DNA from: an uncultured Bacilli bacterium
GTDB taxonomy: Bacteria > Bacillota_I > Bacilli_A > RF39 > UBA660
Direction of reading: 5' to 3'
Length of the DNA: 57,515 nucleotides
Assembly: GCA_947628495.1 (NCBI GenBank)
Contig: CANRAC010000001.1
Span: 1-57,515, forward strand
In this document: piece by piece, positions 1,724 through 21,664 of the stretch
Position numbering within the stretch: position 1 is the stretch's first letter
Layout: each line of letters opens with the position of its first letter
The notes under the pieces: generated by a model
The model's input: only the letters and a program-made list of their open reading frames with translations
Database searches by the model: none
What the model was told of the DNA's origin: nothing
Made by a program: the position numbers and the translations under genes

Positions 1724-2248
1724 ATGAAAAAGCCAAACATTAAAAAATTAAAATACCCACTCTGGTTTCATATTGTATTTTATTGTTTGACAGTTATTGT
1801 ACCTTTAGTTGCTATTCTAATACAAGGCTTTAAGAGTGATAGCACATTATTCAAGTTTACATTTGTTATGATTTGTGCTGCAGTGATTCTATGGATTTTT
1901 GCTAGAAAATTCTTAATAGCAAATTTGGAAGAGAAAATGCAAGCTCGTAAAGCAGCATTAGAACATGACTATGAAATTGAAGTCGGCAATCCAGAAAAAG
2001 CAAAATGGTTATGGTTTAATAATGAAATGTGGCTAAGTATTATAAATGCTATTCACGTTGCATTGATTGGACTTTTAATATTTGTTTGTGCTTGGGGCGT
2101 TGAGTCGGCAGCAATTCAGATTAAAGGTGTTGGTATACTGATAACTTTACTTTACATTATGGCTTATGTACTTAAGTTCATATTGATAGTTAAACTAAGA
2201 GGTCAGGAGCAAGACGAGGAGGTAAAAGATGAAACGCCAAAACAATGA
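1724..2248 (+). CDS. multi-pass membrane protein
   Basis: 174-aa ORF with SD AGGAGGGCGT-ATG and about four hydrophobic segments. Confidence 0.6.
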   Translation: MKKPNIKKLKYPLWFHIVFYCLTVIVPLVAILIQGFKSDSTLFKFTFVMICAAVILWIFARKFLIANLEEKMQARKAALEHDYEIEVGNPEKAKWLWFNNEMWLSIINAIHVALIGLLIFVCAWGVESAAIQIKGVGILITLLYIMAYVLKFILIVKLRGQEQDEEVKDETPKQ

Positions 2249-3284
2249 TAATCTTGAACCTAAAGATTTTAAAAGGTTGTTTAGTGTTAATAGTATTTTA
2301 AGTAAGATAATTACTTATAGTGCTTATATCATCCTCAGCTTCTCAATCTTAATTCTAGTTTACTTATCATTTATTGAGACTTTAGGTATTGAGCCTGATT
2401 GGAGAATATTAACTTTATTCACAATTGCCACGGTTTTATTAGCTTGGAACTGTTGGTCAATGTTTTACAAAAAGCATTATGAAGAAATAATGCAAGAAGA
2501 CGTAGACAAGCAAGAAACAAAACAGTATTCTATACATAGCCGATACTATGTAGCAGTCAAGGACTGGAATGATACTGATTTACAATTAGCCATTGATAAG
2601 TTCAACGAAGAGTATACAGCTCGTTGGTTACGTTGGGTTGAGAAAACCACTGGTGTACCAATCGAAAGTTGTGACAAAGTTGAAGTTGACGAAAATGGTA
2701 ACCCTAAACTAGACGATAATGGACAACCCATTATCGTCCATGTAAAGGGTATTAAAGATTTACGCTATAAAGGTTTTTATCACAAGATAATTATGTGGCG
2801 CATTAAGCACCACGTATACCCTAAGTCAGGTTATACTACAGCAATGGAGCTTATGTCATTGTTGTCATATCAAGAGTCAAATTTCAACAAAAGAAATTTA
2901 AAAGCTGATAAACAATTCTTTACTTCACATGCAATTACAAAATTTATTAGTTTGTTGTTAAGTGTGACGATTGTTGCTACAATCATACCTACAATGATAC
3001 AGGGTGAATATTGGACTGCAATCTTAAGGTTGATATTTGCAATATTTACTGTCGTCTCGTCGGTACTGACTGGAGCAATAAATGGTGTCAAAGGCGCTCG
3101 ATTAAAATTATCTGTAGTCGAAGATGCTGCATCTGACCTTGAGCGTTGGGCCGGCAAGAAACCACTACTTGAGCCATATAAAGAAGTTAAACCTGAAGAA
3201 GAGAAACCCGCTGAACCTGTAAAAGAGCCTGAAACTCCAGCTGAAAAGGTTGAAGAAATTTTCAAACAAAAAATACCTAAATAG
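2229..3284 (+). CDS. multi-pass membrane protein with Pro/Glu-rich C-terminus
   Basis: 351-aa ORF with SD GAGGAGGTAAAAG-ATG. Hydrophobic segments at both ends and a PEEEKPAEPVKEPETPAEK tail. Confidence 0.6.
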   Translation: MKRQNNDNLEPKDFKRLFSVNSILSKIITYSAYIILSFSILILVYLSFIETLGIEPDWRILTLFTIATVLLAWNCWSMFYKKHYEEIMQEDVDKQETKQYSIHSRYYVAVKDWNDTDLQLAIDKFNEEYTARWLRWVEKTTGVPIESCDKVEVDENGNPKLDDNGQPIIVHVKGIKDLRYKGFYHKIIMWRIKHHVYPKSGYTTAMELMSLLSYQESNFNKRNLKADKQFFTSHAITKFISLLLSVTIVATIIPTMIQGEYWTAILRLIFAIFTVVSSVLTGAINGVKGARLKLSVVEDAASDLERWAGKKPLLEPYKEVKPEEEKPAEPVKEPETPAEKVEEIFKQKIPK

Positions 3285-3304
3285 TGTATATTTTTCTAAA
3301 TTCA

Positions 3305-6781: not shown

Positions 6782-9700
6782 ATGAAAACAGTGAAAAGAA
6801 CTACTACTGATATTCAAACCGATGATATAACAAATACTAATAAGTATTTTAATCAAATGGAGTTTAAAGGTATTCAAGAAGACGAGAATATTTACACAAC
6901 TGACCAAGAAGCACTTAGAGACGCAAATAATGTTTATGTAGATGACGACGAACGGTTAGTTAGTCGTCCGACACTACAGCGCAATAATGACTTTCCAGAG
7001 GGTGTAGTGCCTGAAGGTTTTCATATTGTTGATATGAAAAAAGTAGGAGACGGTACACTATATGTTAGTGAACAATTTATTGAGCATTATGATACAAGAT
7101 ATAGTCAGCCTACTCCGAGTCATTTTAAGTTTAAAATTGTTAATTTAACATATTACAAAAATGGTCAAATGTATTCTAAAAAGCTTTACACTACTTATCA
7201 CCAAAGAATTTCGACTTATAACAATTATTATGAAGATGGTAGTAATAATTTATATGGAGCTGATATTAATTCTGAAGATTTTGCAAATTTAAACTTAGTA
7301 CCGGTGAATTACATTGAATTTGAGTTTAGAGCTGATGGTAATCATGAAGATTATACTTATAAAGCAACTGATTGGGAAGAATTTAATGGTTATTTTGCAG
7401 CTGATCAACACAAGTGTTGGAAAACAGTTAGTGATGATGACGATTTTGTGTGCGGCTTTAAATTAAAAACACAAGGTTGGCAAACTACTAAAGCGGTTAC
7501 CTCTCCATTATGTCCTGATGTCAGTGTTACTGGTAATACCGGAAATGCATACAGAACTAATTCAGTGCGACAATTAAATTTTTGGGGTAAATGTGAAAAC
7601 CCTAATGCAAAAGTTGCTATAGTAAATGTGAATTTAATTTCTGGATTTATGACTATTGCAATAGCTGATGAGATTTACTGGAAGACTGATATACCACTCG
7701 AGGTTATTAAATATAAAACTTATGTATATCAAAATTATATAATTGTTTTTAGTAATATGGGAGCAGTTATACTTGATATAAATGATACTAAAGGTTGGTG
7801 TCCATTAAGCGATTATGCAGATACCCCTATAGTTAAACGGGTGATTGGTTCTACTGTTACAACTTACGAGAAAAATCAATTAACTAACTCATATAAAGAA
7901 CAATATATTTATTCTAAAGATAGCCAAATAGCTACTCCATACCGTAACAAAGTAGTTGGTGTTGAGATAACAAGTCCTAATGGTAACTTAAGTTATACTT
8001 ACGACAAAGTTGGTTATCACGAAGAAGATAAAGCCAAGAGAAATGGTGAGATTGGTATAAATGATTTAGCGACTCAAGTTGTAAAAGTACTTCCTGGACC
8101 TACCGATAACCAATCATATAGGTATTCTATTAAAAAAGGAGTTATTGTTAGAGTGGCGTCAGGTGGTTATGAGTACTTTGAAATTTCAGTTGATGGAGGA
8201 AATCATTACGATAGAGTATATTATCCATTTGGACCAGAAGAACAATATATATTTATTGGTGGGCAATTAAGTGAAGATGGTAATTATGTATTTGTTGTGA
8301 CTAGTGCAGGCGTATATCACTGTAATGTTGGAGATTATACTTGGAGCGAAAAAGAAGCCCTTGAAGGAATGCCGTGGGGTGCTGATTTAATACAATTTAC
8401 AGCATTAACTAGTGATAAATTTGCTTTATTTGTTGGACGTATAGTTACAACACCTGGAAGTTTTACATTTAGTCGTCGTTTATATTTTAAAGGTCCAGGA
8501 CTATTTGGTACAGGACAAAAATATACCGATGCTGGTAAGAAAATTGGTTATATTGATGGAGCTAATTATAGAATGGAAGACACTGATCCAACTTATGCAT
8601 CATTTGATAGTTTATGTTTAGGAATTCGAGACTTAGCTAAAGATGGAGCAGAACGCATAAAAATGTGTATGACTAAAGGTTGGCAAGGTGAAGAAGCATG
8701 TGCAATTGTCATATTGGCTGATAGTAATCGTGATACTAATTTAGCTACTGAAAAATACTCAACAGTAATCGTAGTCTTAGGCGGTAATAACCCATTACAA
8801 AGTGATAGAATATTGTCGTTGTATGATAACTCAAACCTAAATATTGGTGGTATTCATGAACTTAAATATGTTACAGAATTAGACTCGGCTATTACAACTA
8901 AGCTACCTAATTTTAAATCTGTAGACTATGTTTTAAATATGTCAATTATAACTGGGTCTCAAAGTGATATAGATGTTAATACTGATGCTTTGAATTTACC
9001 TTGGAATTCAAAAGACAATGGCAGATATTGGTCTTGGTTTGCTGAGGTGCGTCAAGTAGGTATATATACTACTTCAGTTAATGATGGTAAACGATCTATA
9101 CCTTTATCATATAATGGTATGAGTCGTCAAAGTTTACCAATAGCAAGATTTGATTTCGCTAGTAAAGCGATAGGTACTTATGACTCATATATACCGGTAC
9201 GTACATCAAATGCATATATTCAAGTTAGAGCAGGATCATATAATAGTTTAAGTTCGAATATCGCCGCATCACGATTGGCAATTCTACCTCGCAATCATAG
9301 TTCGGGCGATTGGTACTGGGTACCTGAAATATATAATGAGTCTTTAAATACAACCATTGGCACTTATCATCACCAAATTATTGCGGATGGTGATTATTAC
9401 TATTTTATTACGGACGACTATAGTATTATCACTAATAATTTAGGTAATAATGATTTAGCTACATTAACTTACACGTTTAAAGATGAGACACCTTATACTC
9501 AATTGCCAGATGTGACATATAGTGATACTGAGTTTTATTTAGCATTTGGTAATCAGCTTAATATTACCCAGAATTCTACTGTCGATGGCAAAACATATCT
9601 TAATGTGCCTGAAATAAATAATCAAACTTTTACAGATAGAATTACTGGTATGATAAATATATCAACTACTGAGTTAGCAATATTCTTTGAAAATAAAATT

Positions 9701-10531
9701 GTTATTTGTCAAAAAGTAACTGATGAAAATATGCCCGGTGGGTATAGGTATGATTATTATACTACTAAATTAAGTACAGGTGTGCGTACAGGTGATAGTA
9801 TTATAAATACCTTAGAAGGTGCCAATACTATTTTCCCTACACGAAGAGGACTCGCTGCAATGAACTATCAAGCCTTTATGGCAACAAGTGATCAAGTGTT
9901 AAGTTATCTCAGCGACAAGATTAAAAATTTATGGACCGAATTCTATGATAATAGTGAAGTTATTAAAATTATTCAGCATAGAACTAAACTTATTTTAGTC
10001 AATGGCACTGGCACAATGCTTATTTATGATTTGTCTAAAGGCACTTGGTGGAGATGGACTCTACCAACTAAAACATTAGATATATTTACTGACCAAGTAC
10101 AATTGAGTATGATCGATCAAGACAAACTAACATTTAAAGACACTGAAGCTCGTTATATGGACTTTAGTGAAAGTGGTGAAAACTTACCAATAAATTGGTT
10201 TGTTATGTCGGAGCCATTACACATGAAGGCATCTAATTATTATAAGAACTTAAAGCAATTAGTATTTCAATTCTATGATGCTACTGAAACAAATAAAGAG
10301 AAAACTATTCAAGCACAGATTAAACTATATCGTAAGAAAATAACTTTACGTGACCCTGAGACAATTGCATTTACCATAGACAATTTACGAACCTTCGTGA
10401 AACGCTTTAATTACTGGAAGATAAATGAAGTACAATGGGCATTAGCTAATGATACAGAAACTGCTATACCAACTAAGCTCGAGCTCAATGGTATAAGTGT
10501 TAAATATGAGCTCGGAGAGGAGGTGAGATAA
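6782..10531 (+). CDS. large virion/tail protein, function unknown
   Basis: 1249-aa uninterrupted ORF with SD TAGGAGGTTATT-ATG. No motif recognised. Confidence 0.4.
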   Translation: MKTVKRTTTDIQTDDITNTNKYFNQMEFKGIQEDENIYTTDQEALRDANNVYVDDDERLVSRPTLQRNNDFPEGVVPEGFHIVDMKKVGDGTLYVSEQFIEHYDTRYSQPTPSHFKFKIVNLTYYKNGQMYSKKLYTTYHQRISTYNNYYEDGSNNLYGADINSEDFANLNLVPVNYIEFEFRADGNHEDYTYKATDWEEFNGYFAADQHKCWKTVSDDDDFVCGFKLKTQGWQTTKAVTSPLCPDVSVTGNTGNAYRTNSVRQLNFWGKCENPNAKVAIVNVNLISGFMTIAIADEIYWKTDIPLEVIKYKTYVYQNYIIVFSNMGAVILDINDTKGWCPLSDYADTPIVKRVIGSTVTTYEKNQLTNSYKEQYIYSKDSQIATPYRNKVVGVEITSPNGNLSYTYDKVGYHEEDKAKRNGEIGINDLATQVVKVLPGPTDNQSYRYSIKKGVIVRVASGGYEYFEISVDGGNHYDRVYYPFGPEEQYIFIGGQLSEDGNYVFVVTSAGVYHCNVGDYTWSEKEALEGMPWGADLIQFTALTSDKFALFVGRIVTTPGSFTFSRRLYFKGPGLFGTGQKYTDAGKKIGYIDGANYRMEDTDPTYASFDSLCLGIRDLAKDGAERIKMCMTKGWQGEEACAIVILADSNRDTNLATEKYSTVIVVLGGNNPLQSDRILSLYDNSNLNIGGIHELKYVTELDSAITTKLPNFKSVDYVLNMSIITGSQSDIDVNTDALNLPWNSKDNGRYWSWFAEVRQVGIYTTSVNDGKRSIPLSYNGMSRQSLPIARFDFASKAIGTYDSYIPVRTSNAYIQVRAGSYNSLSSNIAASRLAILPRNHSSGDWYWVPEIYNESLNTTIGTYHHQIIADGDYYYFITDDYSIITNNLGNNDLATLTYTFKDETPYTQLPDVTYSDTEFYLAFGNQLNITQNSTVDGKTYLNVPEINNQTFTDRITGMINISTTELAIFFENKIVICQKVTDENMPGGYRYDYYTTKLSTGVRTGDSIINTLEGANTIFPTRRGLAAMNYQAFMATSDQVLSYLSDKIKNLWTEFYDNSEVIKIIQHRTKLILVNGTGTMLIYDLSKGTWWRWTLPTKTLDIFTDQVQLSMIDQDKLTFKDTEARYMDFSESGENLPINWFVMSEPLHMKASNYYKNLKQLVFQFYDATETNKEKTIQAQIKLYRKKITLRDPETIAFTIDNLRTFVKRFNYWKINEVQWALANDTETAIPTKLELNGISVKYELGEEVR

Positions 10532-11727
10532 TGGAAGGGTTTTATGTACCTGGCTCATATAGCAGTTCGTATGTAAGCAATAAAGCTGATGAACAAGGAG
10601 CAAGATACTATGAAAATCAATCGATTGAAATTGGCAAGCAAACTCAAGCCGCTTTAACACAATTAAGTAGCAATTATGAACAGACTATCAATGATGCTTA
10701 CGCAAGTTATCTTGCCAGTCAACAATCAATTGGCAATTCAGCAATGGGCCAAGGTTATAAAGAAGCGTATTTAGAAATGGCTAAAAACCAGTTTCAAAAT
10801 AATATAATTAGTTCTAATCAATCATTAGAACAAGCTCAATTACAAATTCAACAACAGGGACAACAAGCGCAAGCAGCTCTTCAACAACAATTTGCTACAG
10901 ATACTGCTAATCTTGATAGATTTGTTACAAGCTTTGGTGCATACAAAGATTATTTAGCAAAACTCACCCCAAACCCTAATAACCAAAATGCAGTAATATC
11001 TGAAGGTCAATCTTATTTGTCTGAAGACCAAAAGAAAATGACAGTAGATGATTTATATAACTTCTTAATGGAAGCACAACCTGAAGGTTACGTAGATGAG
11101 AATGAGAATAGAGGTTTGACATTTACTGAATGGTTGAATTCACAATATGGTCCAGGCTCTAAAGGTAGTCAAGCTGACCAAGATTGGTTTAATTGGGCTA
11201 TGTTCCAAGGTGGGTATGATGACTTTAAAAACGCCCTCGCTAAAAAGGCAAATCAAACTGAAGCTAATCAGTATCAAGCAATAAAAGAGGAAGAAGCTCG
11301 TCAAGAAGCTGAAAGACAACGACAACTTGAAGAAGCGCGTTTAGCTGAAGAAAGACGTCAACAAGAACTTCGAGATAGGGTAGCTTCATCTAGTTATAAT
11401 GGACAAATAACTTCTACTAGTAATTGGAAGAAAATTAGAACAAATGGTAGTGGTTATGAAGGTAGTGGTAATGATGCAAATTATAGCATACAAACTGATA
11501 GTGGCACTTATCAAATCAAACGTAAAGTTGCTTTTGACTCTGACTTAAGTTATGATTTAGGTTCTGCTTTAAATGCTGAAAAGAAATTAGACAGTGGAGA
11601 ATGGCACGTTGGTGATATAATAAAATATAAAGGTAAGTATTACATCATTACCGATAAACGAAGCAAAGGAGCACGATTAGCTAAACACGGCCATGTTGAA
11701 TATTATGAAATTGATTATAAAATTTAA
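10531..11727 (+). CDS. Gln-rich coiled-coil virion protein
   Basis: 398-aa ORF. ATG overlaps the upstream stop (TAATG). Contains QQQGQQAQAALQQQ and EARQEAERQRQLEEARLAEERRQQE tracts. Confidence 0.4.
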   Translation: MEGFYVPGSYSSSYVSNKADEQGARYYENQSIEIGKQTQAALTQLSSNYEQTINDAYASYLASQQSIGNSAMGQGYKEAYLEMAKNQFQNNIISSNQSLEQAQLQIQQQGQQAQAALQQQFATDTANLDRFVTSFGAYKDYLAKLTPNPNNQNAVISEGQSYLSEDQKKMTVDDLYNFLMEAQPEGYVDENENRGLTFTEWLNSQYGPGSKGSQADQDWFNWAMFQGGYDDFKNALAKKANQTEANQYQAIKEEEARQEAERQRQLEEARLAEERRQQELRDRVASSSYNGQITSTSNWKKIRTNGSGYEGSGNDANYSIQTDSGTYQIKRKVAFDSDLSYDLGSALNAEKKLDSGEWHVGDIIKYKGKYYIITDKRSKGARLAKHGHVEYYEIDYKI

Positions 11728-11756
11728 GTGATGTGTAGAACACACTAGGAGGTAAA

Positions 11757-14700
11757 ATGGAAGTAAGAAATAAAGTCGGAAGTGATAGGTCCGATTTGTA
11801 TAGGGGTTCGGGTCAATTAGGTAGTACTTTAGACTACCTAATGTATAACGACCCATCAACCTACTATTATCAAAAATTAAGAAGCACCAATAATCAATAT
11901 CTTAGAGATGACTATTGGTCCGAGGCTGCTAGACGAGGTGAGACTGACCAGCTTTTAGCATCTTTATTAAGCTGGGAGAACTTAGACAGTAATTTACAAG
12001 CAGCTAAAAAAGAGTTAGAAAGTTTCACACAAACTGGTGATGAAGAAAAAGATAACAAAAAGAAAAAAGAGCTTGAAGATAAAGTAAATCATTTGTCAAA
12101 TTTAAATAGCAATTATCTTGACAAAGTTAAAGATTATGCTGATAAAGGTTATGAAGACTATAATACCTATATGCTTGCTATGACTTTACCATTGTTTGAT
12201 GACCCCGAAAAGAAAGAGCGAGTCGATGAAGCATCTGGTTATAACTTCGGCTCGTATACTGATAAAGAATGGGCTGAAAAGGTTCTTGACTCAATTTTTG
12301 AGAGGTATGACGTTCAAATCGCTGAAGCTGAAAAAGAAAATATGAACTGGTTCCAAAAAGTTGGTGCGACAATAGGTTCTGGACTTCTAAGCTTTGTTGG
12401 TGGCGTCGTTAACTTTTTTGGCGATGTTGTTAATTTAGGCGAAGGTATTTTAAATTGTTTCTTCAACTTTAGTGATGATGCTACCTGGAATGACAGGTTC
12501 TTATGGGCATTTAGTGATGAGTCGACTGGGTTCTTTGAACAAGCAGGTGATTTGTTTAATGATATGGCTTATAAAGTAGCGTATGAATCTACTGATATGG
12601 TTAATATGGTTGATGCATATGATGCTGGTTATCGTCCAGCAAGTTGGGAAGGCATGATTTTTGGTACCGACAGAAGTCAAGGCGTTGGAGCAAGTTATAG
12701 AACTTGGGGCAAATGGTGGTCTGGAGCATTCTCTTCAATTGGCTATATGTTGCCATCAATGGTAATTAGTGCTGGAGTCAGTGCAATACCAGGTGGTGCA
12801 GCAATTGCTGGTAAAGTAGGTACTTCAGTATTTTATAGTGGTATCTTTTCAGGTAATATTAGTGATACTGTGAGTGCTGCGGCAAATGAAGGTATAAGTT
12901 ATAAAGACCTTAATGCTGGTGAAGTAGTTTCAAACGGCTTAATTAAGGCCGGCTTACAATGGGCGGTTGAAGTTGCTTTAGGTAAAATCTTAGGTTTTAG
13001 TGGACTAGACCAAGCAATAGGTATCGGTCGTGGCGCTGGTAAATTTGGCAATCTTGTTGGAGGTATGGGTGGTAAACTAGGCGCTATTGGCGTTACTGCA
13101 TTACGAGCCGGCCGTAGTATGGCTAAAGAAGGTCTTGAAGAAGTTTTACAAGATATGTCTGACTCTTTTGTTGATGCTATCTATGGCACAACAAATAGCA
13201 AAATAGCTGACCTATATTCTAGTAGAGCTCTTGAGACTATCAACCCTATGAACTTATTAGAGTCATTTGTTGTTGGTGCCTTAACTGAGGGCGTCATTAG
13301 TAGTTTACAAGGTGTTAAATATATTCTACCTAAAAACCGCGCAGTTCAAACAGATATAGACGGCAATGTTCAAGCTATGGGTTTCTTCCAGACATTAAAC
13401 TTTAATGCTGCTCTAGAAACTATGAATGACTGGAACAACATATTAAATGATAGTAAAGCAACTACAGAGGCTAAAGCTGATGTGGCTATGAAAATGAGTG
13501 CTGCTATCAATACTATTGGTTCCGTTTTAAAAAGCTTTGGACAATCTGATGCACTTAAAGTAAATCAAATACTTGATATCTATGCTGCTGGAGAAAAGAA
13601 AACTGAGTTGCTTGAAAAAGCAAATTTAAGTAACGAACAATATGCTACAAAATTATATGACTCATTCTTAACACATTATGCTGAAGTTGAGCGTAAATAT
13701 GTGCCTAAACCATTAAAAACCAAGATTAAAGAAACATTTGCCAAACTGGCAGATAAGTTTAAAAAGAAAGGTGTGACTGAAGTCAACAATATAATCACTA
13801 ATAAGATTGACGGCAATGACCCAGACGTGCCATTAAAATCAAACAATGTTGAAAACTTTAAAGCAGCACTTGAGAAATTAGGTGCTGAGGCAATTATTGG
13901 TACTAATGGTAATATTATTACTAAATCTGAAGACATTGTTGTTGTACCTAATAAATTGTTAGAGACAGGTGACCTTGCAACCATTATTCAAGGTGTTGCA
14001 TTCGACCAAGTTCAACAGGCCGTCATTAGTGCTTTAAGTCCTGCTCAACGTAAAATGATTGTTAGACAATATGAAAAAGCTACTGGTACTACATGCACTA
14101 CAGAGCAAGCCGTTCAAGCATTATTGTTTGATAAGGCATTCTATACTAGAATATTATTAGCAAGTGAAGAAGGACATAAATATAACGTCGAGGCCTTACA
14201 AGTATTAGCAACAATAAATAAAGTTGTTCAAGCTAAAGCATCTCCGTTATTAAAAAACGGCAAGTTAGCAAATGACGCTTATAATGTTTTAATGCAGAAA
14301 ATTCAAAAGACAATGCAAACCGGTTTAGTTACTTATTGTACTAAATATGCTCGTATTGACTTAGGTGAAATAACAAATGATATATTGTCACCTGAATTAA
14401 AAGAAGTAATTAAAAACCATCAAAATACAATCTTTAGTGAATTTGTCGATGAAGGTATTAAAGATACGAAGACTCAAGCTCCTGACTCTGAGAGGACGAC
14501 AAGGTTTGATACCTATCTTCAAAAGTTTTCGAGTTCATTAAGTGCTGAAGAGATAACAGAGTTAAAACAAAAAGCAAGAAGTACTAATGTTAATGATAGA
14601 GTTGACGCATATACAATGTTAACAGTTTTAAGTAGAAATAGCACTAGTCCTAATGCAACAAAAGATAAACTTGTTTATTTGCCAACTTCTCCAGACGGTA

Positions 14701-17700
14701 TTATTGAGCGTGAACATTTACAAAATGTCGAGAAGTTCTTTGGTCTAACTTGGGCTGAACTTATTTCAGGTAATTATGATGCTTCTAAGATTACTCAAGA
14801 AGGACGTAATTTCATTCAAGCTCAATATGATATGAGTGATAGGGCCTCCAGATTGGCTTGCATAAGAGATGCATTGTTTAATATCTCAGGCGGAACATTA
14901 ACTGTTGGTATGGATGGCTCAATTCTCGAGATAATGGAAAAAGACAAATTTGTTAAAGATAAGTATCTTGGCAAAGAAGGCACTAAAGCCTTTAGAGACG
15001 ATTTACGTAAAGGTGTAATTAAAACTGTTGCTGACGTAGTTAAAGTCGACTTAAAGAATAGTACTATCAAGAATATGAAACTTGTTAGAAGTGACACACT
15101 TAATGGTGCTAAAGGTGCATTTGTCTATGGTGATGACCATATTAGTTTCAGTGCTGGTGCAGACGTTAATACATTTATGCATGAATTAACTCATGTTACT
15201 CAATATGCATTAGATGTCACTGGTCAATCTGCTACTGGCGGTTATGCTGGTATGTTTAAATATATGACACCTGAGGCAGCTAAGTCATTAGACAACTATA
15301 TTGCTGAGAAGTTCCCGCTCACATATAATTATATGGTAAATCATAAAATATCTACTTATAATACTATATACTTTATGTTGGCAGGTGAACTACAAGCAAA
15401 TAGTACACTTGGCACTCATATGTTTGACGTCGGTTTCACATTCGATAAAGCCGGCACAGTTCTTGTTAGTCCAGATGGTAAAGAGCGTTGGAACTTAAAA
15501 GCTAATCAGTCTGATGCTCAAAAACAATTTAGACGAAATGTAGCTAAGGCTCGTCGAGAACTGAGTAAAGAGATTAAAAATCAGCAACAAGCAAATACTA
15601 CTGAAAATACTCAAACTACAAAAGCTACTACTGAAGCTAAAACTGAAACTAAGGCTGCTAGTCAATTAGACGAGAGAACCACTAAAGCATTAGATGAAGT
15701 AGTTAATAAAAATGTAAAGAAGGCAACTCGTGCTACTATCAATCAAGTGAACAATGCTACATTATATAAGGGTATGAATGTAAGTAAAGTCACTGAATTT
15801 GATAATACTAAAGGCAATAAGAAACGTATAGTGTCAAATGCTATATGGCTTACTGACAATAAGAATGTTGCTGAGTCTTATGCTAATAATAAACGAGCTT
15901 CTGCAACTGTTTATGATAGTAAAGTATCTATAAGCAATCCATTAGTCATCGATGCTAAAGGCCAAGCATTCTCTAGTATTATGGGTAACATTACGTCTGA
16001 CCAAATTGCAGTATATGCTCAAGAGCATGGCTATGACTCCCTTGTTATAAAGAATGTTCTTGATATTGGTCCATATTTAGGTAATGTGACTAATAGAGAA
16101 AATAGTATGAAACCAAGTACAGACGTCGTTATATTTGATAAAACTAAAGCAAAGATAACAAATGAAACTAAATACAGTGAGGATGAGACTTTAGACAATT
16201 TAGATAAAGAGTATACTGCTACTAAGCAAGAAGATAGAGGACAATTAGTTGGTGCAAACAAAAAGACTCAAGACGCATTTAATAATTTATCTGAAGATGC
16301 TATTGTTCAAATTATGAATTCAACTTCAGAAGATGTTGATTTAACACCTGAAGAAGAGCAATACGGTCTAGAGTTAGCAAAGGCATTGAAGATTAGACGT
16401 TTAACTCCTAAAGAAGAGTTTGCTCTAATGGGAGTTAAGGCCGAGGACTTTGCTCGAATTGCAGCCAATCAGAGTGATGCAAGTTTGTATCATTTAGCCG
16501 GAGATAGTATTATTGTTGACGTACTTAAAAATATATTCGACAAACTATATACAGATGGCTACTTAACCAAACCTGTTCGTTTAATAGAATTCTTTGCTGG
16601 TTATGGTGCACAAAACTTTGCTCTTGACTATTTAGGTAAAGATTACGAAAGTTGGAAAATTGCTGAATGGGCTGTAAAATCTATTCAAGCTTACAAAGAT
16701 GCTCATCATTCAACTGATACTAAGGACTATGCTGCTAATATGACTAAATCTGAGCTACTAGATTATTTAGTAAATATTGGTGTAAGTCTAAACTACAATA
16801 GTCCGGCAGGTCGTGAGTCTTTAAATACTAAGAGTCTACAAGAGTTAAAAGATATTTACAATAACATTCAGGCCACTCATAACTTAGTCAATATTCAAAA
16901 AGTGACTGGTGAGAGTTTGGAAATCACTGACACAGATAGTCATGATTATGTATTAACCTATTCGTTCCCTTGTCAAGATTTATCTCGGGCTGGTAAACGA
17001 GCGGGTATGCACGGTCAAGATACTTCTACTGGTACTCAGTTATCTTTGTTTGAAACAATTGAAAATGCTAGTCAAATCGAAACTCAAACACGTAGTGGTC
17101 TATTATGGGAAGTCGACAGAATATTAAAAGAGTTGTATGATGCTGACAAACCATTGCCTCAAGTACTTATAATGGAGAATGTGCCTGAAGTGCATAACTC
17201 TGTTAATAGGACTGACTTCAAACAATGGTTATCTAATCTACAAAAATATGGTTATACTAATAGTTATACTGATATAAAAGGTAGTGATTATGGTATACCA
17301 CAAAAACGTGTTAGAACTATTATGGTAAGTACTTTAAATAATAAAGCATTTACTTTCCCAGCTAAACAACAATTAAAGTCGTCTATGATGGACTATCTAG
17401 ACAAGAATGTTGATAACAAATATTACTTAACTGATAAACAAGCTAGAACATTTATGAGCTATCGTGAGTCATTTGATAATAATAAAACTACTCATCCAAT
17501 CAATACAAGTATAGCCTCTACTTTGACTACTAAACAGGAGAAGCGAGCTCAAGGTGGTAACTTCTATAGTCCACTTGTTGATAATGACGTCGACTTATAT
17601 GATTTGTTACACCCAACTAAGAATAGTGTACAAAATACTATTGATGCTTTAAATCAAGTCAAAGCTGGTCAAAAGATAACTGCTAGTCAACAAAAAATGT

Positions 17701-20700
17701 GGAGTGAGGATCGTGATTTAAGTCTAAATAAAAATTCTCGTCGTAGAAATAAAATGACTCAAGAAGAATTAAATAAATATAACCGGGACAGATATATTAC
17801 TAATAAAGAAGCACGCAAGTCTAACTTGAAATACTATATTCAAAAAGGCGTTACTATTAGATTACATCCAGGTGTCGCAGCATTTGTTGAAGCAACTACT
17901 CACGATTTTACAAAATTACCAACTATATTGCAAAATAAAATAGTTTCAGGAAAATTACTTTATAGTGATATTCTTGACTATATTAACACTGCAGCAAATA
18001 TGGATGATTATACATTTAAGGCAATTGCTAAATATGTGTTTAATAATGAACGACTTGCCAAATTGGATGTTAAAACATTACTTAAATTAGAAGACAGCTT
18101 GCATGAATTTGCTATGGCTGCATATTTGACTAAAGAACCTGATAAATATTTAACACCTAAACAAATGGCAGATACTTATAAAGAAGTTATTGCAAATAGT
18201 AGTCCTGAAAAAATCGAATGGGCTCAAAAATTTACGGAAAATATAGTACGAACTGATAGAGGTGGACACAATAAATATATCGAAGCAATACCACAAACAA
18301 ATCAGCTCAATGAGTCATTCTTTAAAAAGTATGATGGCACATTAGCTGGTATGCGTGAAATAAATAATTTGGCTAAAGCTGTTGCTAACATATATGATAC
18401 TCATCAAGTAGCTCGAGAAAATCAAAAAACTGCTACAGTTGAATATGACTATAGCACTACCGTAATTATTAAGAAAAATGACGACATTTCTAAAACGCTA
18501 GATAGTATTGATAAAGTTGAGAAGATGAATACTATTGAAGCTTATTATACAGATGTATTGATTAAACGTTTACAAGAAAAAATGGCAACTGAAGGTATTC
18601 GACCTGATAAAGAAGCAGTAATTGCTTTGAGACGTAAAATCGACGACATGGTTGATGATTTAGATAAATTGTCCGACACTGAACTTAATGCTAAATATCT
18701 AGAAGTATTAAATCAGAATAGTCAACAAAAGAAAAGTCTATCTGCTGTTACTGCTACAGCTACAATGCAAAGAACACCATATGAAGAACAAGAACGTTCA
18801 ATAAAAAATATTAAAGATACGTTTAGAGGCGTTGGTCGTACAATGACTCGTTGGCTTAAAAGTACCGAAGATGCTACTGATACTGAAAGGTTCTATAATA
18901 GATTGCCTGACAATATTAAGAAATGGTTTGACCCAAATAATGGTTATAAGCTAGTTTCAGATTATTATAAACTAAGTAAACAAGAAATTCTCGACTTACA
19001 AAGTAAAATACAAGCCGCTCGTGACCAAGTGAAACATTGGGTGAAAGCTGAAGAAGCTACTAAAGTTGCACTTAAAAAAAGTAAAGAACGTTTGTCAAAA
19101 CTACAAAAAGAATATAAAACATATCGTGAAAAAACTGAGGCTACTTTGAAAGAGAATAAAACCTTACGTCAAAAGGTACAAGTTGAGCACGTAGTTCGTA
19201 TTGAGGGCACTAATGTTACAAGTAGTTCTCCATCAAACCGTGTTGTTGAAGAGATATTAAAGACTAGCTGGAATAAGAAACGTATGGGCGAAGTACAAGA
19301 GCTTGATAATAATATTGAGCATGCAGTGGCTAATGCAAATACGTTCTTTAAAGAAAATGCTAATACTTTATTGTCAGCAAGCACGACAGAACTTGAAGAA
19401 GCTATTGCATTCTTTGCTAATAATACTACTAAGTTGACTGAAGACGAATTTGCTCGATTTAATGCTTTAAGAACTTACTTCTTTGGTTGGGTGCTTGAAG
19501 CAAATAAGAATGGACAAATTACTCTTAATGCAAATCTTAAACAACAAGTAAACAATATTATGCGTAATATGGCATCTAACTATGGTACTGGTTTGGCTGT
19601 GTGGAATAATATTCGACAAAGGTTAAATCCATTAGATAGTATGCGTTCGCAAGATATTGAGGTTGGTGGTATCACCCTTAATGACGACTTAAAAGACAAG
19701 TTGTTTGATGCTATTGAGTCTAATGATGTTGACGTAATGACTAAAACATATGAAGAGATTACTGAGTGGCTTGACGAACAACAATCTAGCAAGAAGGGTG
19801 TATTAAGACGTATAGTCGGCGTGCGCTCAATGGCTATGTTGTCTTCTCCACTTACTTGGTTAAGAAATAAAATGTCTAACTTTATGTTAAAACGTTTAAA
19901 TACATTATCTAGTAAAATAGGTAATGCAATGTTTAAAGGTAAAACTATGGCTGGACAGTTGAAGATGAACCAACAAGTAACTCCTGAAATACAAAAGTTT
20001 ATTACTGACAATATTATTGATAACGGTTTCTTTGACACATTTGTATCTAACTTGTCTAAGTTTAATGTAAGTGATATTGTTGCTAAAAACCAAAATAAGA
20101 TTGCTAAAGGCGAAACTTTGACTAGAGAAGAGATTACTACTCACTTAGTTCTCAAAGCAATTTACAATGAATACTATAACAATAATATGTTTAAGTCTAA
20201 ATTGTTAAATGACTTGCATAAGAATTTAATGAAGGTGATGAGTGATGACTCTTATGTGCGTGAAGCTGCTGTAAGGTATTTTGGTAAGATATTAGCTGAA
20301 AAGAAATATAGTCTCAAAGATGGCAAAATGACTGATGCTATAATGAATGACTTCTCAACTGCTATTGGTCTTGCACTTAATGACTATATGCACTCTGACA
20401 ACTTCTTCAACAATGTTGAACGTTGGTTATCTGATAGAAGTGAGCTTGGTTGGTTTGCTTATAAATTGATAATGCCTTATGCTGCATCATCTTGGAACTG
20501 GTTTAAGGCTGCTATAAGATATAGTCCTATTGGTCTTGGTCGTGCTATTTATAGAATAACTCACCTTGAACAACAGGTGGCTAAAGCCGAAGCAGATTAT
20601 ATCGCAGGTAAATCTAATGTATCTCCTGAACTTACAGAATACTTAATTCGCCGCGACTTAGGCTCTGGTGTAATTGGTACTGTGGCTATGGGACTTGGTG

Positions 20701-21629
20701 CATTACTTGCCGGTCTTGGCTTTATGCGACTTGAGGATGACGACTATGGTAAGCCTAAACTTCACATTGGTAATCTTGTTATTGACGTATCTGACATATT
20801 TGGTAGTTCTAGTGTTCTGGCTGGTGCTGCATTTGTTACCGGTATACAAGAGAAAGGTTGGACTTGGGAAGGTGTGCTAGATGCTTTGAATAGATTAGCA
20901 GATGTGACTATTGACGATTTACCAGTTATGGACATTGTTCAAATGGACATGTACTCTAATGGTTCATTCGATATGGGTCTTAATCAACTTGAGAGTATTG
21001 CATTAAGCTTTATACCTAATATCTTAAGCTGGTTTGCTGGTCTAACTTATACTGGCACTCTGAACAAACAGACATTCTTAGATAGAGCACTAGCTAAAAT
21101 ACCATTTGCCGCTAGATTAGTCGAAAAGAAGGTTGACCCTTATACTGGCAAGACTGACTCTTGGGCTGATTGGGTAGGACGTGCTGTTCCTTACTTCAGC
21201 TGGGATGCTGCATCTCAAAATGAACGTAAGACTACAGCATTAGGTTTAACTAAGACTATGCTTCGTGGACAGTATAAAGTTAATGGTGAAGACTTTAATG
21301 TTACAGGTAAAGACTTGACTGAAATCAATAAGACTTATGGTACTTTAAATGCTGAAGACTTAACTAAGTTCTATGAAAATAAATTAGCTGTTTCTGTTAA
21401 ACAAGAAAATGGCAAATATAAAACAATGACCTATAATCAAATGACCACTAAGCAACGACAGAATGCTGTATCAAGTATTATGCAAAATAATGCTGACCTT
21501 GTTAAGATTATTGCTTGGCTCAAAGCTGGTAATAAATATTACGCATCAAGCACTATTTATAATAAACTTGTTAAGTTAGGTATTACTAAAAATCTATATC
21601 GTGGCTCTAAAGGCTTTGTTAAAGGTTAA
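11757..21629 (+). CDS. giant polyvalent (multidomain, probably virion-packaged/ejected) protein, 3290 aa
   Basis: Single uninterrupted ORF with SD TAGGAGGTAAA-ATG. Has Gly-rich hydrophobic segments near the N-terminus (SGLLSFVGGVVNFFG; SMVISAGVSAIPGGAAIAG) and the C-terminus (VIGTVAMGLGALLAGLGF). Internal HELTH zincin motif, ART-like domain and C5-MTase motifs. Confidence 0.7.
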   Translation: MEVRNKVGSDRSDLYRGSGQLGSTLDYLMYNDPSTYYYQKLRSTNNQYLRDDYWSEAARRGETDQLLASLLSWENLDSNLQAAKKELESFTQTGDEEKDNKKKKELEDKVNHLSNLNSNYLDKVKDYADKGYEDYNTYMLAMTLPLFDDPEKKERVDEASGYNFGSYTDKEWAEKVLDSIFERYDVQIAEAEKENMNWFQKVGATIGSGLLSFVGGVVNFFGDVVNLGEGILNCFFNFSDDATWNDRFLWAFSDESTGFFEQAGDLFNDMAYKVAYESTDMVNMVDAYDAGYRPASWEGMIFGTDRSQGVGASYRTWGKWWSGAFSSIGYMLPSMVISAGVSAIPGGAAIAGKVGTSVFYSGIFSGNISDTVSAAANEGISYKDLNAGEVVSNGLIKAGLQWAVEVALGKILGFSGLDQAIGIGRGAGKFGNLVGGMGGKLGAIGVTALRAGRSMAKEGLEEVLQDMSDSFVDAIYGTTNSKIADLYSSRALETINPMNLLESFVVGALTEGVISSLQGVKYILPKNRAVQTDIDGNVQAMGFFQTLNFNAALETMNDWNNILNDSKATTEAKADVAMKMSAAINTIGSVLKSFGQSDALKVNQILDIYAAGEKKTELLEKANLSNEQYATKLYDSFLTHYAEVERKYVPKPLKTKIKETFAKLADKFKKKGVTEVNNIITNKIDGNDPDVPLKSNNVENFKAALEKLGAEAIIGTNGNIITKSEDIVVVPNKLLETGDLATIIQGVAFDQVQQAVISALSPAQRKMIVRQYEKATGTTCTTEQAVQALLFDKAFYTRILLASEEGHKYNVEALQVLATINKVVQAKASPLLKNGKLANDAYNVLMQKIQKTMQTGLVTYCTKYARIDLGEITNDILSPELKEVIKNHQNTIFSEFVDEGIKDTKTQAPDSERTTRFDTYLQKFSSSLSAEEITELKQKARSTNVNDRVDAYTMLTVLSRNSTSPNATKDKLVYLPTSPDGIIEREHLQNVEKFFGLTWAELISGNYDASKITQEGRNFIQAQYDMSDRASRLACIRDALFNISGGTLTVGMDGSILEIMEKDKFVKDKYLGKEGTKAFRDDLRKGVIKTVADVVKVDLKNSTIKNMKLVRSDTLNGAKGAFVYGDDHISFSAGADVNTFMHELTHVTQYALDVTGQSATGGYAGMFKYMTPEAAKSLDNYIAEKFPLTYNYMVNHKISTYNTIYFMLAGELQANSTLGTHMFDVGFTFDKAGTVLVSPDGKERWNLKANQSDAQKQFRRNVAKARRELSKEIKNQQQANTTENTQTTKATTEAKTETKAASQLDERTTKALDEVVNKNVKKATRATINQVNNATLYKGMNVSKVTEFDNTKGNKKRIVSNAIWLTDNKNVAESYANNKRASATVYDSKVSISNPLVIDAKGQAFSSIMGNITSDQIAVYAQEHGYDSLVIKNVLDIGPYLGNVTNRENSMKPSTDVVIFDKTKAKITNETKYSEDETLDNLDKEYTATKQEDRGQLVGANKKTQDAFNNLSEDAIVQIMNSTSEDVDLTPEEEQYGLELAKALKIRRLTPKEEFALMGVKAEDFARIAANQSDASLYHLAGDSIIVDVLKNIFDKLYTDGYLTKPVRLIEFFAGYGAQNFALDYLGKDYESWKIAEWAVKSIQAYKDAHHSTDTKDYAANMTKSELLDYLVNIGVSLNYNSPAGRESLNTKSLQELKDIYNNIQATHNLVNIQKVTGESLEITDTDSHDYVLTYSFPCQDLSRAGKRAGMHGQDTSTGTQLSLFETIENASQIETQTRSGLLWEVDRILKELYDADKPLPQVLIMENVPEVHNSVNRTDFKQWLSNLQKYGYTNSYTDIKGSDYGIPQKRVRTIMVSTLNNKAFTFPAKQQLKSSMMDYLDKNVDNKYYLTDKQARTFMSYRESFDNNKTTHPINTSIASTLTTKQEKRAQGGNFYSPLVDNDVDLYDLLHPTKNSVQNTIDALNQVKAGQKITASQQKMWSEDRDLSLNKNSRRRNKMTQEELNKYNRDRYITNKEARKSNLKYYIQKGVTIRLHPGVAAFVEATTHDFTKLPTILQNKIVSGKLLYSDILDYINTAANMDDYTFKAIAKYVFNNERLAKLDVKTLLKLEDSLHEFAMAAYLTKEPDKYLTPKQMADTYKEVIANSSPEKIEWAQKFTENIVRTDRGGHNKYIEAIPQTNQLNESFFKKYDGTLAGMREINNLAKAVANIYDTHQVARENQKTATVEYDYSTTVIIKKNDDISKTLDSIDKVEKMNTIEAYYTDVLIKRLQEKMATEGIRPDKEAVIALRRKIDDMVDDLDKLSDTELNAKYLEVLNQNSQQKKSLSAVTATATMQRTPYEEQERSIKNIKDTFRGVGRTMTRWLKSTEDATDTERFYNRLPDNIKKWFDPNNGYKLVSDYYKLSKQEILDLQSKIQAARDQVKHWVKAEEATKVALKKSKERLSKLQKEYKTYREKTEATLKENKTLRQKVQVEHVVRIEGTNVTSSSPSNRVVEEILKTSWNKKRMGEVQELDNNIEHAVANANTFFKENANTLLSASTTELEEAIAFFANNTTKLTEDEFARFNALRTYFFGWVLEANKNGQITLNANLKQQVNNIMRNMASNYGTGLAVWNNIRQRLNPLDSMRSQDIEVGGITLNDDLKDKLFDAIESNDVDVMTKTYEEITEWLDEQQSSKKGVLRRIVGVRSMAMLSSPLTWLRNKMSNFMLKRLNTLSSKIGNAMFKGKTMAGQLKMNQQVTPEIQKFITDNIIDNGFFDTFVSNLSKFNVSDIVAKNQNKIAKGETLTREEITTHLVLKAIYNEYYNNNMFKSKLLNDLHKNLMKVMSDDSYVREAAVRYFGKILAEKKYSLKDGKMTDAIMNDFSTAIGLALNDYMHSDNFFNNVERWLSDRSELGWFAYKLIMPYAASSWNWFKAAIRYSPIGLGRAIYRITHLEQQVAKAEADYIAGKSNVSPELTEYLIRRDLGSGVIGTVAMGLGALLAGLGFMRLEDDDYGKPKLHIGNLVIDVSDIFGSSSVLAGAAFVTGIQEKGWTWEGVLDALNRLADVTIDDLPVMDIVQMDMYSNGSFDMGLNQLESIALSFIPNILSWFAGLTYTGTLNKQTFLDRALAKIPFAARLVEKKVDPYTGKTDSWADWVGRAVPYFSWDAASQNERKTTALGLTKTMLRGQYKVNGEDFNVTGKDLTEINKTYGTLNAEDLTKFYENKLAVSVKQENGKYKTMTYNQMTTKQRQNAVSSIMQNNADLVKIIAWLKAGNKYYASSTIYNKLVKLGITKNLYRGSKGFVKG
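15180..15194 (+). other. HExxH zincin metalloprotease motif (HELTH, aa 1142-1146 of the giant protein)
   Basis: FMHELTHVTQY read directly. The frame was checked against the 11757 start. Confidence 0.5.
15753..16145 (+). other. ART-like (ADP-ribosyltransferase-like, polyvalent-protein type) domain, aa ~1333-1463
   Basis: NATLYKGM...IWLTDNKNVAESYA...SNPLVIDAKG...HGYDSLVIKNV...DVVIFD follows the strand/motif pattern I associate with ART domains of polyvalent proteins. Assigned by eye only. Confidence 0.35.
16395..17575 (+). other. C5-cytosine DNA methyltransferase domain with permuted motif order (IX-X-I-IV-VI-VIII-TRD), aa ~1547-1940
   Basis: Motifs in order: RRLTPKEEFALMGV (IX), LAGDSIIVDVLKNIF (X-like), IEFFAGYGAQ (I), YSFPCQDLSRAGKRAG (IV, catalytic Cys at 16971-16973), IMENVPEV (VI), GIPQKRVRTIMVS (VIII), ASTLTTKQ (TRD-like). 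Confidence 0.75.
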
Positions 21630-21633
21630 AAAT

Positions 21634-21664
21634 AAAGGCACTAGTAAGTCACTAGTGCCTTTTT
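21634..21664 (+). terminator. intrinsic terminator of the + strand structural arm
   Basis: AAAGGCACTAGT-aagtc-ACTAGTGCCTTT: 12-bp stem followed by TTTTCATTC, placed 5 nt after the stop of the 3290-aa gene. Confidence 0.85.

Follow-up and report, generated by a model that had tools for sequence, protein, structure and literature searches.

What is the function of a single phage protein of 3290 residues that closes the structural arm of its genome and combines enzyme domains with long stretches of no recognised motif? The question is raised by a gene on contig CANRAC010000001.1 (GenBank assembly GCA_947628495.1, uncultured Bacilli bacterium), whose 57,515 nucleotides (nt), the whole stretch that was analysed, are called the window here. 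By injecting enzymes, some phages overcome the defences of the host within seconds of the start of infection, and few carriers of such enzymes are known from cultured phages. The best explanation for the gene, with a probability of roughly two in three, is that its product is an internal virion (ejection) protein of giant size, made by a podovirus-like phage, which doubles as a carrier of exchangeable enzymes. Relatives were collected by a word-indexed search that gave more than 146 full-length proteins of 2550–3790 residues, nearly all on contigs of up to 54–61 kb; the description of the layout and all conservation counts below refer to the BLAST coverage of the 119 relatives listed, mapped onto the 3290-residue query. 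The gene and its parts, all on the plus strand, are the following:

11757..21629, plus strand: whole giant gene, 3290 residues and a stop codon; a single open frame, last gene of the structural arm

11757..15506, plus strand: N scaffold, residues 1–1250; covered in 116–119 of the 119 relatives over residues 51–1250 and in 93 of 119 over residues 1–50 (BLAST)

12360..12812, plus strand: two Gly-rich hydrophobic helices of the N scaffold, residues 202–227 and 332–352 (Kyte–Doolittle scan)

15054..15416, plus strand: zincin-like metallopeptidase module; HExxH at 15180–15194 (residues 1142–1146), Glu1211 in GELQAN at 15384–15401

15507..15758, plus strand: Thr/Lys/Glu-rich linker that opens the variable slot, residues 1251–1334; conservation falls from 116/119 to 49/119 relatives

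15759..16070, plus strand: ART-PolyVal module (PF18760), residues 1335–1438, pattern Y-K-G ... Y ... N-x-x-D-x-G

16185..17711, plus strand: C5 cytosine methyltransferase module (PF00145), residues 1477–1985, circularly permuted

17712..21626, plus strand: alpha-helical C scaffold, residues 1986–3290; in essentially all listed relatives from about residue 2012

19686..21116, plus strand: core resembling internal virion protein D, residues 2644–3120; hhalign E = 4.6e-5, four colinear high-confidence blocks

Motifs of this core, plus strand: MLSSPLTWLRNKMSN (19836–19880), PYAASSWNWF, a glycine-zipper hydrophobic helix (20670–20723) and SFIPN (21006–21020)

21637..21664, plus strand: putative terminator, a GC-rich hairpin GGCACTAGT ... 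ACTAGTGCC followed by TTTTT, directly 3' of the stop codon of the giant gene

The protein consists of two scaffolds and a slot. Both scaffolds (residues 1 to about 1250 and about 2012 to 3290) are present in essentially all 119 relatives, and the stretch between them ranges from about 50 to 1144 residues; in the shortest relatives (about 2550 residues) hardly anything separates the N from the C scaffold. What is conserved is thus the part without motifs, and the enzymes are cargo that occupies a single defined slot. The first-pass annotation, a reading of the sequence made without database searches, had counted more than 2000 residues without a recognised motif; they are motif-less to a reader, but they are not filler, since they make up the two scaffolds. 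Many relatives lack any enzyme, and the variation in length sits in the cassette, not in the helical parts. The content of the slot differs even between phages with scaffolds 98–99% identical: there are pairs with 98–99% identity over the C-terminal 700 residues and yet dissimilar cassettes, e.g., P0071 and P0094, whose C-terminal tails are 99.4% identical and whose cassettes have no detectable similarity. By single linkage, 120 cassettes fell into seventeen groups, the largest of which comprises 100 cassettes. A Pfam search with 15 diverse members found Dcm in four, ART-PolyVal in two, one marginal domain of unknown function and nothing else; most of the cargo of the family thus appears to be of a kind that Pfam does not recognise. 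The sharp boundaries of the modules mark out many candidate effectors.

Metagenomes, from the gut and elsewhere, contain a very large number of family members, whereas cultured phages and PHROGs contain none. A HMMER search with the C-terminal 800 residues against 1.84 billion representatives gave at least 1443 clusters at E ≤ 1e-3 and 421 at E ≤ 1e-30, and the best 150 clusters are almost all proteins of 2400–4669 residues. The scaffolds have no DNA or protein match in 50,697 GenBank phage records and no PHROG, even when members only 24–29% identical are used as queries. One member (P0170) reaches 4669 residues; its slot, or a second slot, can thus hold far more than the approximately 1144 residues seen among the first 119 relatives.

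Structure and profile comparisons indicate what the C scaffold may be. The AlphaFold 2 model of residues 2091–3290 (predicted local distance difference test, pLDDT, 70.6) is almost pure helix, and the Kyte–Doolittle scan places a Gly-rich hydrophobic segment at residues 2972–2990, which, with the two helices of the N scaffold, bears out the Gly-rich hydrophobic segments first noticed at both ends of the protein. A Foldseek search with the C-scaffold model against BFVD, a database of predicted viral structures, returned 37 matches at E ≤ 1e-3; the top ones are terminal fragments of giant gut-virome proteins, several of them annotated with PolyVal ART, LPD, MuF-C or nuclease domains, and after them come two proteins from cultured phages, the internal virion protein of the Pelagibacter phage Eyrgjafa (E = 1.7e-9) and that of the Synechococcus phage S-CBP2 (E = 2e-9). 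In the gene order of Eyrgjafa, gp22 comes behind the capsid, both tail tube proteins (A and B) and three small proteins, with the tail fibre following it, which is the position of gp16 in phage T7. A profile of nine proteins of this kind (internal virion protein D of Eyrgjafa, HTVC011P, HTVC025P, HTVC119P, HTVC131P, Roseobacter phage CRP-114, Desulfovibrio phage ProddE, Syn5 gp45 and S-CBP42) was aligned by hhalign with the profile of the giant family at E = 4.6e-5, in four blocks:

Block 1: MLSSPxTWxRNxxSN in the giant family, LLSxPxTHxVNxxSN in marine internal virion protein D

Block 2: lPFxxxSWNWF...SPiGL in the giant family, iPFxxTPxNL...rxPLl in marine internal virion protein D

Block 3: RRDLGSGVIGT..LG.LLAGLG in the giant family, RGRxAxGxAL..A..LA..G in marine internal virion protein D

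Block 4: SFIPN in the giant family, SFIP in marine internal virion protein D

Fold and sequence thus agree on a distant relationship of residues about 2644–3120, and the C scaffold is distantly related to internal virion protein D, which marine T7-like podoviruses encode at the gp16 position. This core has no nonsynonymous change relative to the corresponding gene of a 94%-identical phage (contig L024). As a separate observation, in a non-significant alignment with T7 gp16 the invariant SSPLTWLRNKMSNFML (19836–19880, residues 2694–2708) stands opposite RSPWTKLLNGTTNYLL (T7 gp16 residues ~975–992), with the pattern SPxTxLxNxx[ST]N[FY]xL in common, which may be a remnant of common ancestry.

The N scaffold is almost entirely alpha-helical (AlphaFold 2 model of residues 51–1250, pLDDT 72.8) and contains the zincin-like module near its end. 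The HExxH motif pointed out by the first reading holds up at residues 1142–1146: H1142, E1143, H1146 and the downstream E1211 are the same in all members, including those with no more than 20% identity, and the module has no nonsynonymous change relative to L024. In the model, three short strands precede the HExxH helix and the Glu sits on a helix further along, the same strand-helix-helix arrangement as Iyer et al. describe for their zincin-like peptidase (PMC5512222). Comparison of the N scaffold with the N-terminal part of marine internal virion protein D gave a colinear alignment that is suggestive, not significant (E = 0.045), and so did the comparison of residues 323–522, which hold the second hydrophobic helix, with residues 128–308 of gp60 of Pseudomonas phage H66 (E = 0.0058). 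In the latter alignment the near-invariant motif KEGLEExLQDxSD (13125–13154, residues 457–466) lines up with SEGFLEELPQSASE near the N-terminus of H66 gp60, as does the hydrophobic LPSM segment ahead of it.

In the window, the slot holds two modules after its linker. The ART-PolyVal model PF18760 matches residues 1335–1436 with 32.8 bits in the whole protein and with 40 bits (E = 8.5e-10) when the module is scanned alone (cut-off 31.2); every one of 13 diverse family modules matches it. An hhalign comparison with the prototype in Roseovarius Plymouth podovirus 1 (E = 5.6e-5) puts LYKG on LYHG; the ART profile had no match in PDB. The pattern in the family is Y-[K/R]-G ... Y ... N-x-x-D-x-G, with the Tyr and an Asp invariant. 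The ratio of nonsynonymous to synonymous substitution rates (dN/dS) of the module relative to L024 is 0.026, i.e., strong purifying selection, so the module is not decaying, though its chemistry may differ.

The second module is a complete C5 cytosine methyltransferase, as had been claimed at first sight: PF00145 matches residues 1690–2019 (E = 7e-30), this is the only domain of the protein seen by NCBIfam and PHROGs, and all six diagnostic motifs are found, namely FFAGYG at 1612 (I), FPCQ at 1737 (IV), ENVP at 1807 (VI), QKRVR at 1849 (VIII), RRLTPKE at 1547 (IX) and GDSI at 1582 (X). Their order is not the canonical one from I to X; IX and X (residues 1547–1585) stand ahead of I, IV, VI and VIII (residues 1612–1853). 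In a search of solved structures by sequence, the methylase is the only part of the giant protein with a match, and its best relative, M.MpeI (4dkj/8c56; E = 2e-22), aligns in two swapped pieces, residues 1605–1887 on MpeI 9–268 and residues 1480–1597 on MpeI 274–388, which confirms that the methylase is circularly permuted. The module can be present or absent between close relatives. The protein encoded on L024 (P0002) is 96% identical over residues 1–1479 and 88.5% identical over residues 1917–3290 and has no methylase; at the DNA level, the two genomes are 94% identical on both sides of an exact in-frame indel of 1527 nt (509 codons; window 16184–17710), bounded by the 8-nt repeat AGTGAGGA. 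In guanine-cytosine (GC) content the module equals its flanks and thus gives no hint that it arrived recently from a foreign source.

The 3290-residue gene is real, and purifying selection acts on it. The early description of an uninterrupted ORF (open reading frame) of 9,873 nt that amounts to 17% of the genome and ends the structural arm after proteins of 1249 and 398 residues was confirmed in each respect: 3290 codons follow one another without interruption, the genome is about 57.4 kb long and the gene order is as described. The contig ends (1–77 and 57439–57515) are an exact 77-nt overlap, so the genome, of about 57,438 bp, is complete and circular or circularly permuted, and the structural arm spans the contig ends. 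An assembly chimera, or several genes read through as one, is hardly credible as the source of the ORF: 119 colinear full-length relatives occur on independent contigs of 54–61 kb; two relatives (P0005 and P0007) align with the giant protein end to end, ART and methylase modules included; dN/dS relative to L024 is 0.03–0.15 and lies far below 1 in every part; and the gene has a single, strong ribosome-binding site (AGGAGG at 11747–11752, 5 nt ahead of the ATG) and a single terminator, which speaks against read-through. The synonymous rate dS relative to L024 (2495–10831) is very uneven along the gene, 0.02–0.07 in the zincin and ART region, 0.23 for the whole N scaffold and 0.30 for the C scaffold, which suggests recent recombination swapping the central part between lineages.

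The layout can be compared with several known systems. Iyer, Burroughs, Anand, de Souza and Aravind (2017; PMC5512222) described polyvalent proteins with ART, methylase and zincin domains and predicted their delivery with the DNA. The giant protein resembles the phage-type members in having a zincin-like HExxH motif with a downstream Glu, a PolyVal ART and a DNA methylase in one giant polypeptide beside virion genes. It places at least two conflict-related domains (ART-PolyVal and C5 methylase, plus HExxH...E) in one phage polypeptide, and the genome encodes a terminase, a portal, a polymerase and a primase, so the assignment of the protein to the phage-type polyvalent class, proposed in the first-pass annotation, fits the published description. 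It differs from the proteins of that study (PMC5512222) in that its zincin has no Pfam match, its ART has Lys or Arg for His, and it consists mostly of a conserved carrier not described there, with the enzymes in one defined slot.

Internal virion protein D of marine Autographiviridae (Eyrgjafa gp22, HTVC011P gp34, Syn5 gp45) shares with the giant protein the C-scaffold fold and the four colinear motifs; both are helical, have a Gly/Ala-rich hydrophobic helix and are encoded late in the structural arm. The marine proteins have 1200–1600 residues and, unlike the giant protein, neither an enzyme cassette nor a zincin, and their phages are otherwise unrelated, since the T7-type RNA polymerase, tail tube and capsid are not detectable in this genome. 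Hardies et al. (2016; PMC4819975) counted H66 gp60 and N4 gp50 among the homologues of internal virion protein D and described both as hosts of a domain meant to work in the cytoplasm (the N4 polymerase and the gp60 methylase). H66 gp60 (Pseudomonas phage H66, F116 group) has 3787 residues and was verified in virions by mass spectrometry, according to its GenBank record; like the giant protein, it is giant, is encoded by the last gene of the structural arm and has an S-adenosylmethionine-dependent methyltransferase domain, of a different type. The C scaffold has no significant similarity to H66 gp60 (E = 0.14).

The virion RNA polymerase of coliphage N4, gp50 (3500 residues), which is packaged and injected, is alike in size class, in its place last after the capsid and tail-tube-like genes, in having an enzyme active in the cytoplasm between terminal domains and in its zincin motif. 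The giant protein differs from it in having no RNA polymerase domain and in the order of the parts: the zincin follows the enzyme in N4 and precedes it here. In the comparison of the giant protein with N4 gp50, the zincin motif alone aligns, weakly (E = 0.018), and the C scaffold has no significant similarity to the C-terminus of gp50 (E = 0.51); an N4-type virion RNA polymerase was considered for the giant protein and rejected on account of the lacking polymerase domain and of this alignment. As a functional model for the methylase cargo we take the Dar system of phage P1, in which DarB is a large methyltransferase-containing protein packed in the head and injected, where it shields the incoming DNA from restriction. 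DarB, however, comes from a myovirus and is an N6-adenine methylase/helicase protein without an ejection-protein scaffold. The layout also recalls large multifunctional bacterial toxins, with their conserved terminal translocation regions, central exchangeable effectors and built-in protease, by analogy only.

The design is thus already known (Hardies 2016, PMC4819975; Iyer 2017, PMC5512222). What is new is, first, the carrier family as such, which is very large and has neither cultured members nor annotation. New too are its one slot with sharp edges, placed immediately behind a zincin that never varies; a methylase module that was gained or lost cleanly in nature between phages otherwise almost the same; the permuted C5 methylase as cargo; and the K/R-for-H variant of ART. 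The two nearly identical phages, only one of which has the methylase, offer a natural comparison for the function of methylase cargo, and the relation to the proteins at the gp16 position extends the view of Hardies et al. that such ejection proteins repeatedly host domains destined for the cytoplasm.

If the giant protein is an internal virion protein of this kind, it would be made late, be packed into the core of the capsid and leave the particle before the DNA or together with it; its hydrophobic helical scaffolds would help to form a channel through the cell envelope, as in T7, and the zincin would cleave the polypeptide and free the cargo. The ART-like module would then modify a host target, and the methyltransferase would methylate phage DNA against restriction, either before packaging in the producing cell or on the incoming genome. 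We infer packaging and ejection from the position in the genome and the relation to internal virion proteins, and the steps of packaging, ejection, channel formation, cleavage and cargo action are modelled on established knowledge of the T7 core proteins, N4 gp50, T4 Alt and P1 Dar and on Hardies 2016 and Iyer 2017. A more specific version, possible and put forward tentatively, is a dedicated cargo-slot injection system, in which an ejection protein of the internal virion protein D type is split by its built-in zincin and a recombination-prone slot directly after it holds enzymes that are carried in frame into the cell and cut free there. If so, the carrier clusters, at least 1443 in number, would be a large library of host-takeover or anti-defence effectors with ready-made module boundaries, as most of the cassette sequence matches no Pfam model.

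Other explanations fit parts of these data. The gene might encode a late cytoplasmic multi-enzyme that is not injected, its methylase modifying progeny DNA, its ART-like module acting on host proteins and its scaffolds serving in assembly or otherwise; the gene does lie in the late operon, and the S-adenosylmethionine and double-stranded DNA that a methylase needs are plentiful in the producing cell. The conserved part, however, is not the enzymes but about 2500 residues of helical scaffold related to internal virion proteins, many members are enzyme-free, and there would be no reason for an in-frame, exchangeable fusion into such a carrier, which makes this explanation unlikely. Similarly improbable is a virion protein that stays with the particle, as inner core, plug or central needle, with cargo acting in or on it: the location among the structural genes and the similarity in fold to core proteins would suit it equally well, but ART and DNA methyltransferase domains need cytoplasmic nicotinamide adenine dinucleotide (NAD+) and S-adenosylmethionine, and the T7 core proteins and N4 gp50 are ejected (established knowledge; PMC4819975). 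A further alternative, a tape measure protein that has taken up enzyme domains in a long-tailed phage, would likewise be very long and helical, with Gly-rich hydrophobic segments, and encoded late in the structural module. It is nevertheless a very improbable candidate, given that no tape-measure model in Pfam, PHROGs or NCBIfam matches, that the neighbouring ORFs match no PHROGs or Pfam model and hence offer no tail tube, sheath or chaperone, that the best tape-measure fold match in BFVD is at rank 43 with a non-significant E of 0.057, and that length varies through the cassette and not through the helical parts. The first-pass annotation had called the protein tape-measure- or ejection-protein-like; the second half of this description is favoured by the match of the C scaffold to internal virion proteins, and the first half found neither a model nor a fold to match.

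Several results weigh against an injected internal virion protein with active cargo. The TM-scores between the C scaffold and internal virion proteins are low (0.25–0.28). T7 gp16 has no significant similarity to the giant family (E = 0.3); it has none to the marine gp16-position family either. No solved structure matches either scaffold, by sequence search or by Foldseek against PDB, where both models gave only non-significant matches to solenoid and membrane-transporter structures (best E 0.02–0.09). Profile searches against PDB and hhalign found nothing to link the 260-, 1249- and 418-residue proteins of the structural arm to tail tube A, tail tube B and capsid of the T7 type; as the neighbours are not recognisable by profile methods, the podovirus morphology is a deduction. 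The zincin module matches no Pfam peptidase model at E ≤ 1, the PolyVal metallopeptidase included, and it is retained in cargo-free members, so cargo release cannot be its sole role; perhaps it also cuts the N scaffold from the C scaffold. The catalytic His of the H-Y-D triad of ART is Lys here (K-Y-D) and Arg in some relatives, which makes ART activity uncertain; the ART-like domain of the first reading therefore stands as a family match above the cut-off, but with its catalytic His replaced. A late-expressed methylase could act in the producing cell without injection. Finally, the case for packaging and ejection is indirect, and this gut phage has no cultured host.

The surroundings of the gene are those of a phage. 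Terminase and portal genes lie at 45.5–49.5 kb, the plus-strand structural arm runs across the contig ends to 21.6 kb, and DNA polymerase and primase are encoded on the minus strand, converging on it. The giant gene follows ORFs of 1249 and 398 residues, and the convergent DNA polymerase gene comes next. The order of a 418-residue, a 260-residue and a 1249-residue protein, a variable ORF (234–475 residues) and the giant gene recurs in all loci retrieved, at identities as low as about 25%, with the convergent polymerase after the giant gene in the loci that reach that far; this order resembles that of T7-like phages and N4. The 418-residue protein, the most conserved of the block, is presumably the capsid protein. 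No PHROGs model matches any of the 16 unassigned ORFs of the structural arm, and the ten largest of them gave only sub-threshold matches in Pfam.

A related 55.8-kb contig (L010, JAZSES010000224.1) was binned in a metagenome-assembled genome (MAG) of Candidatus Limenecus (Gastranaerophilales, Melainabacteria), and the bin of the window itself is a MAG of 1.06 Mb and 145 contigs; these two bins are the only hints at a host, from binning alone. The 1249-residue ORF (6782–10531) varies between 936 and 1628 residues among relatives, and in distant ones only its last ~400 residues align (tblastn); such a pattern would be expected for a tail or receptor-binding component, although no family was matched. 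The ORF at 10531–11727, which immediately precedes the giant gene, shows the lowest conservation in the block (234–475 residues); it has no tblastn match in the distant loci L006–L009, yet an ORF of similar size stands there in the same place.

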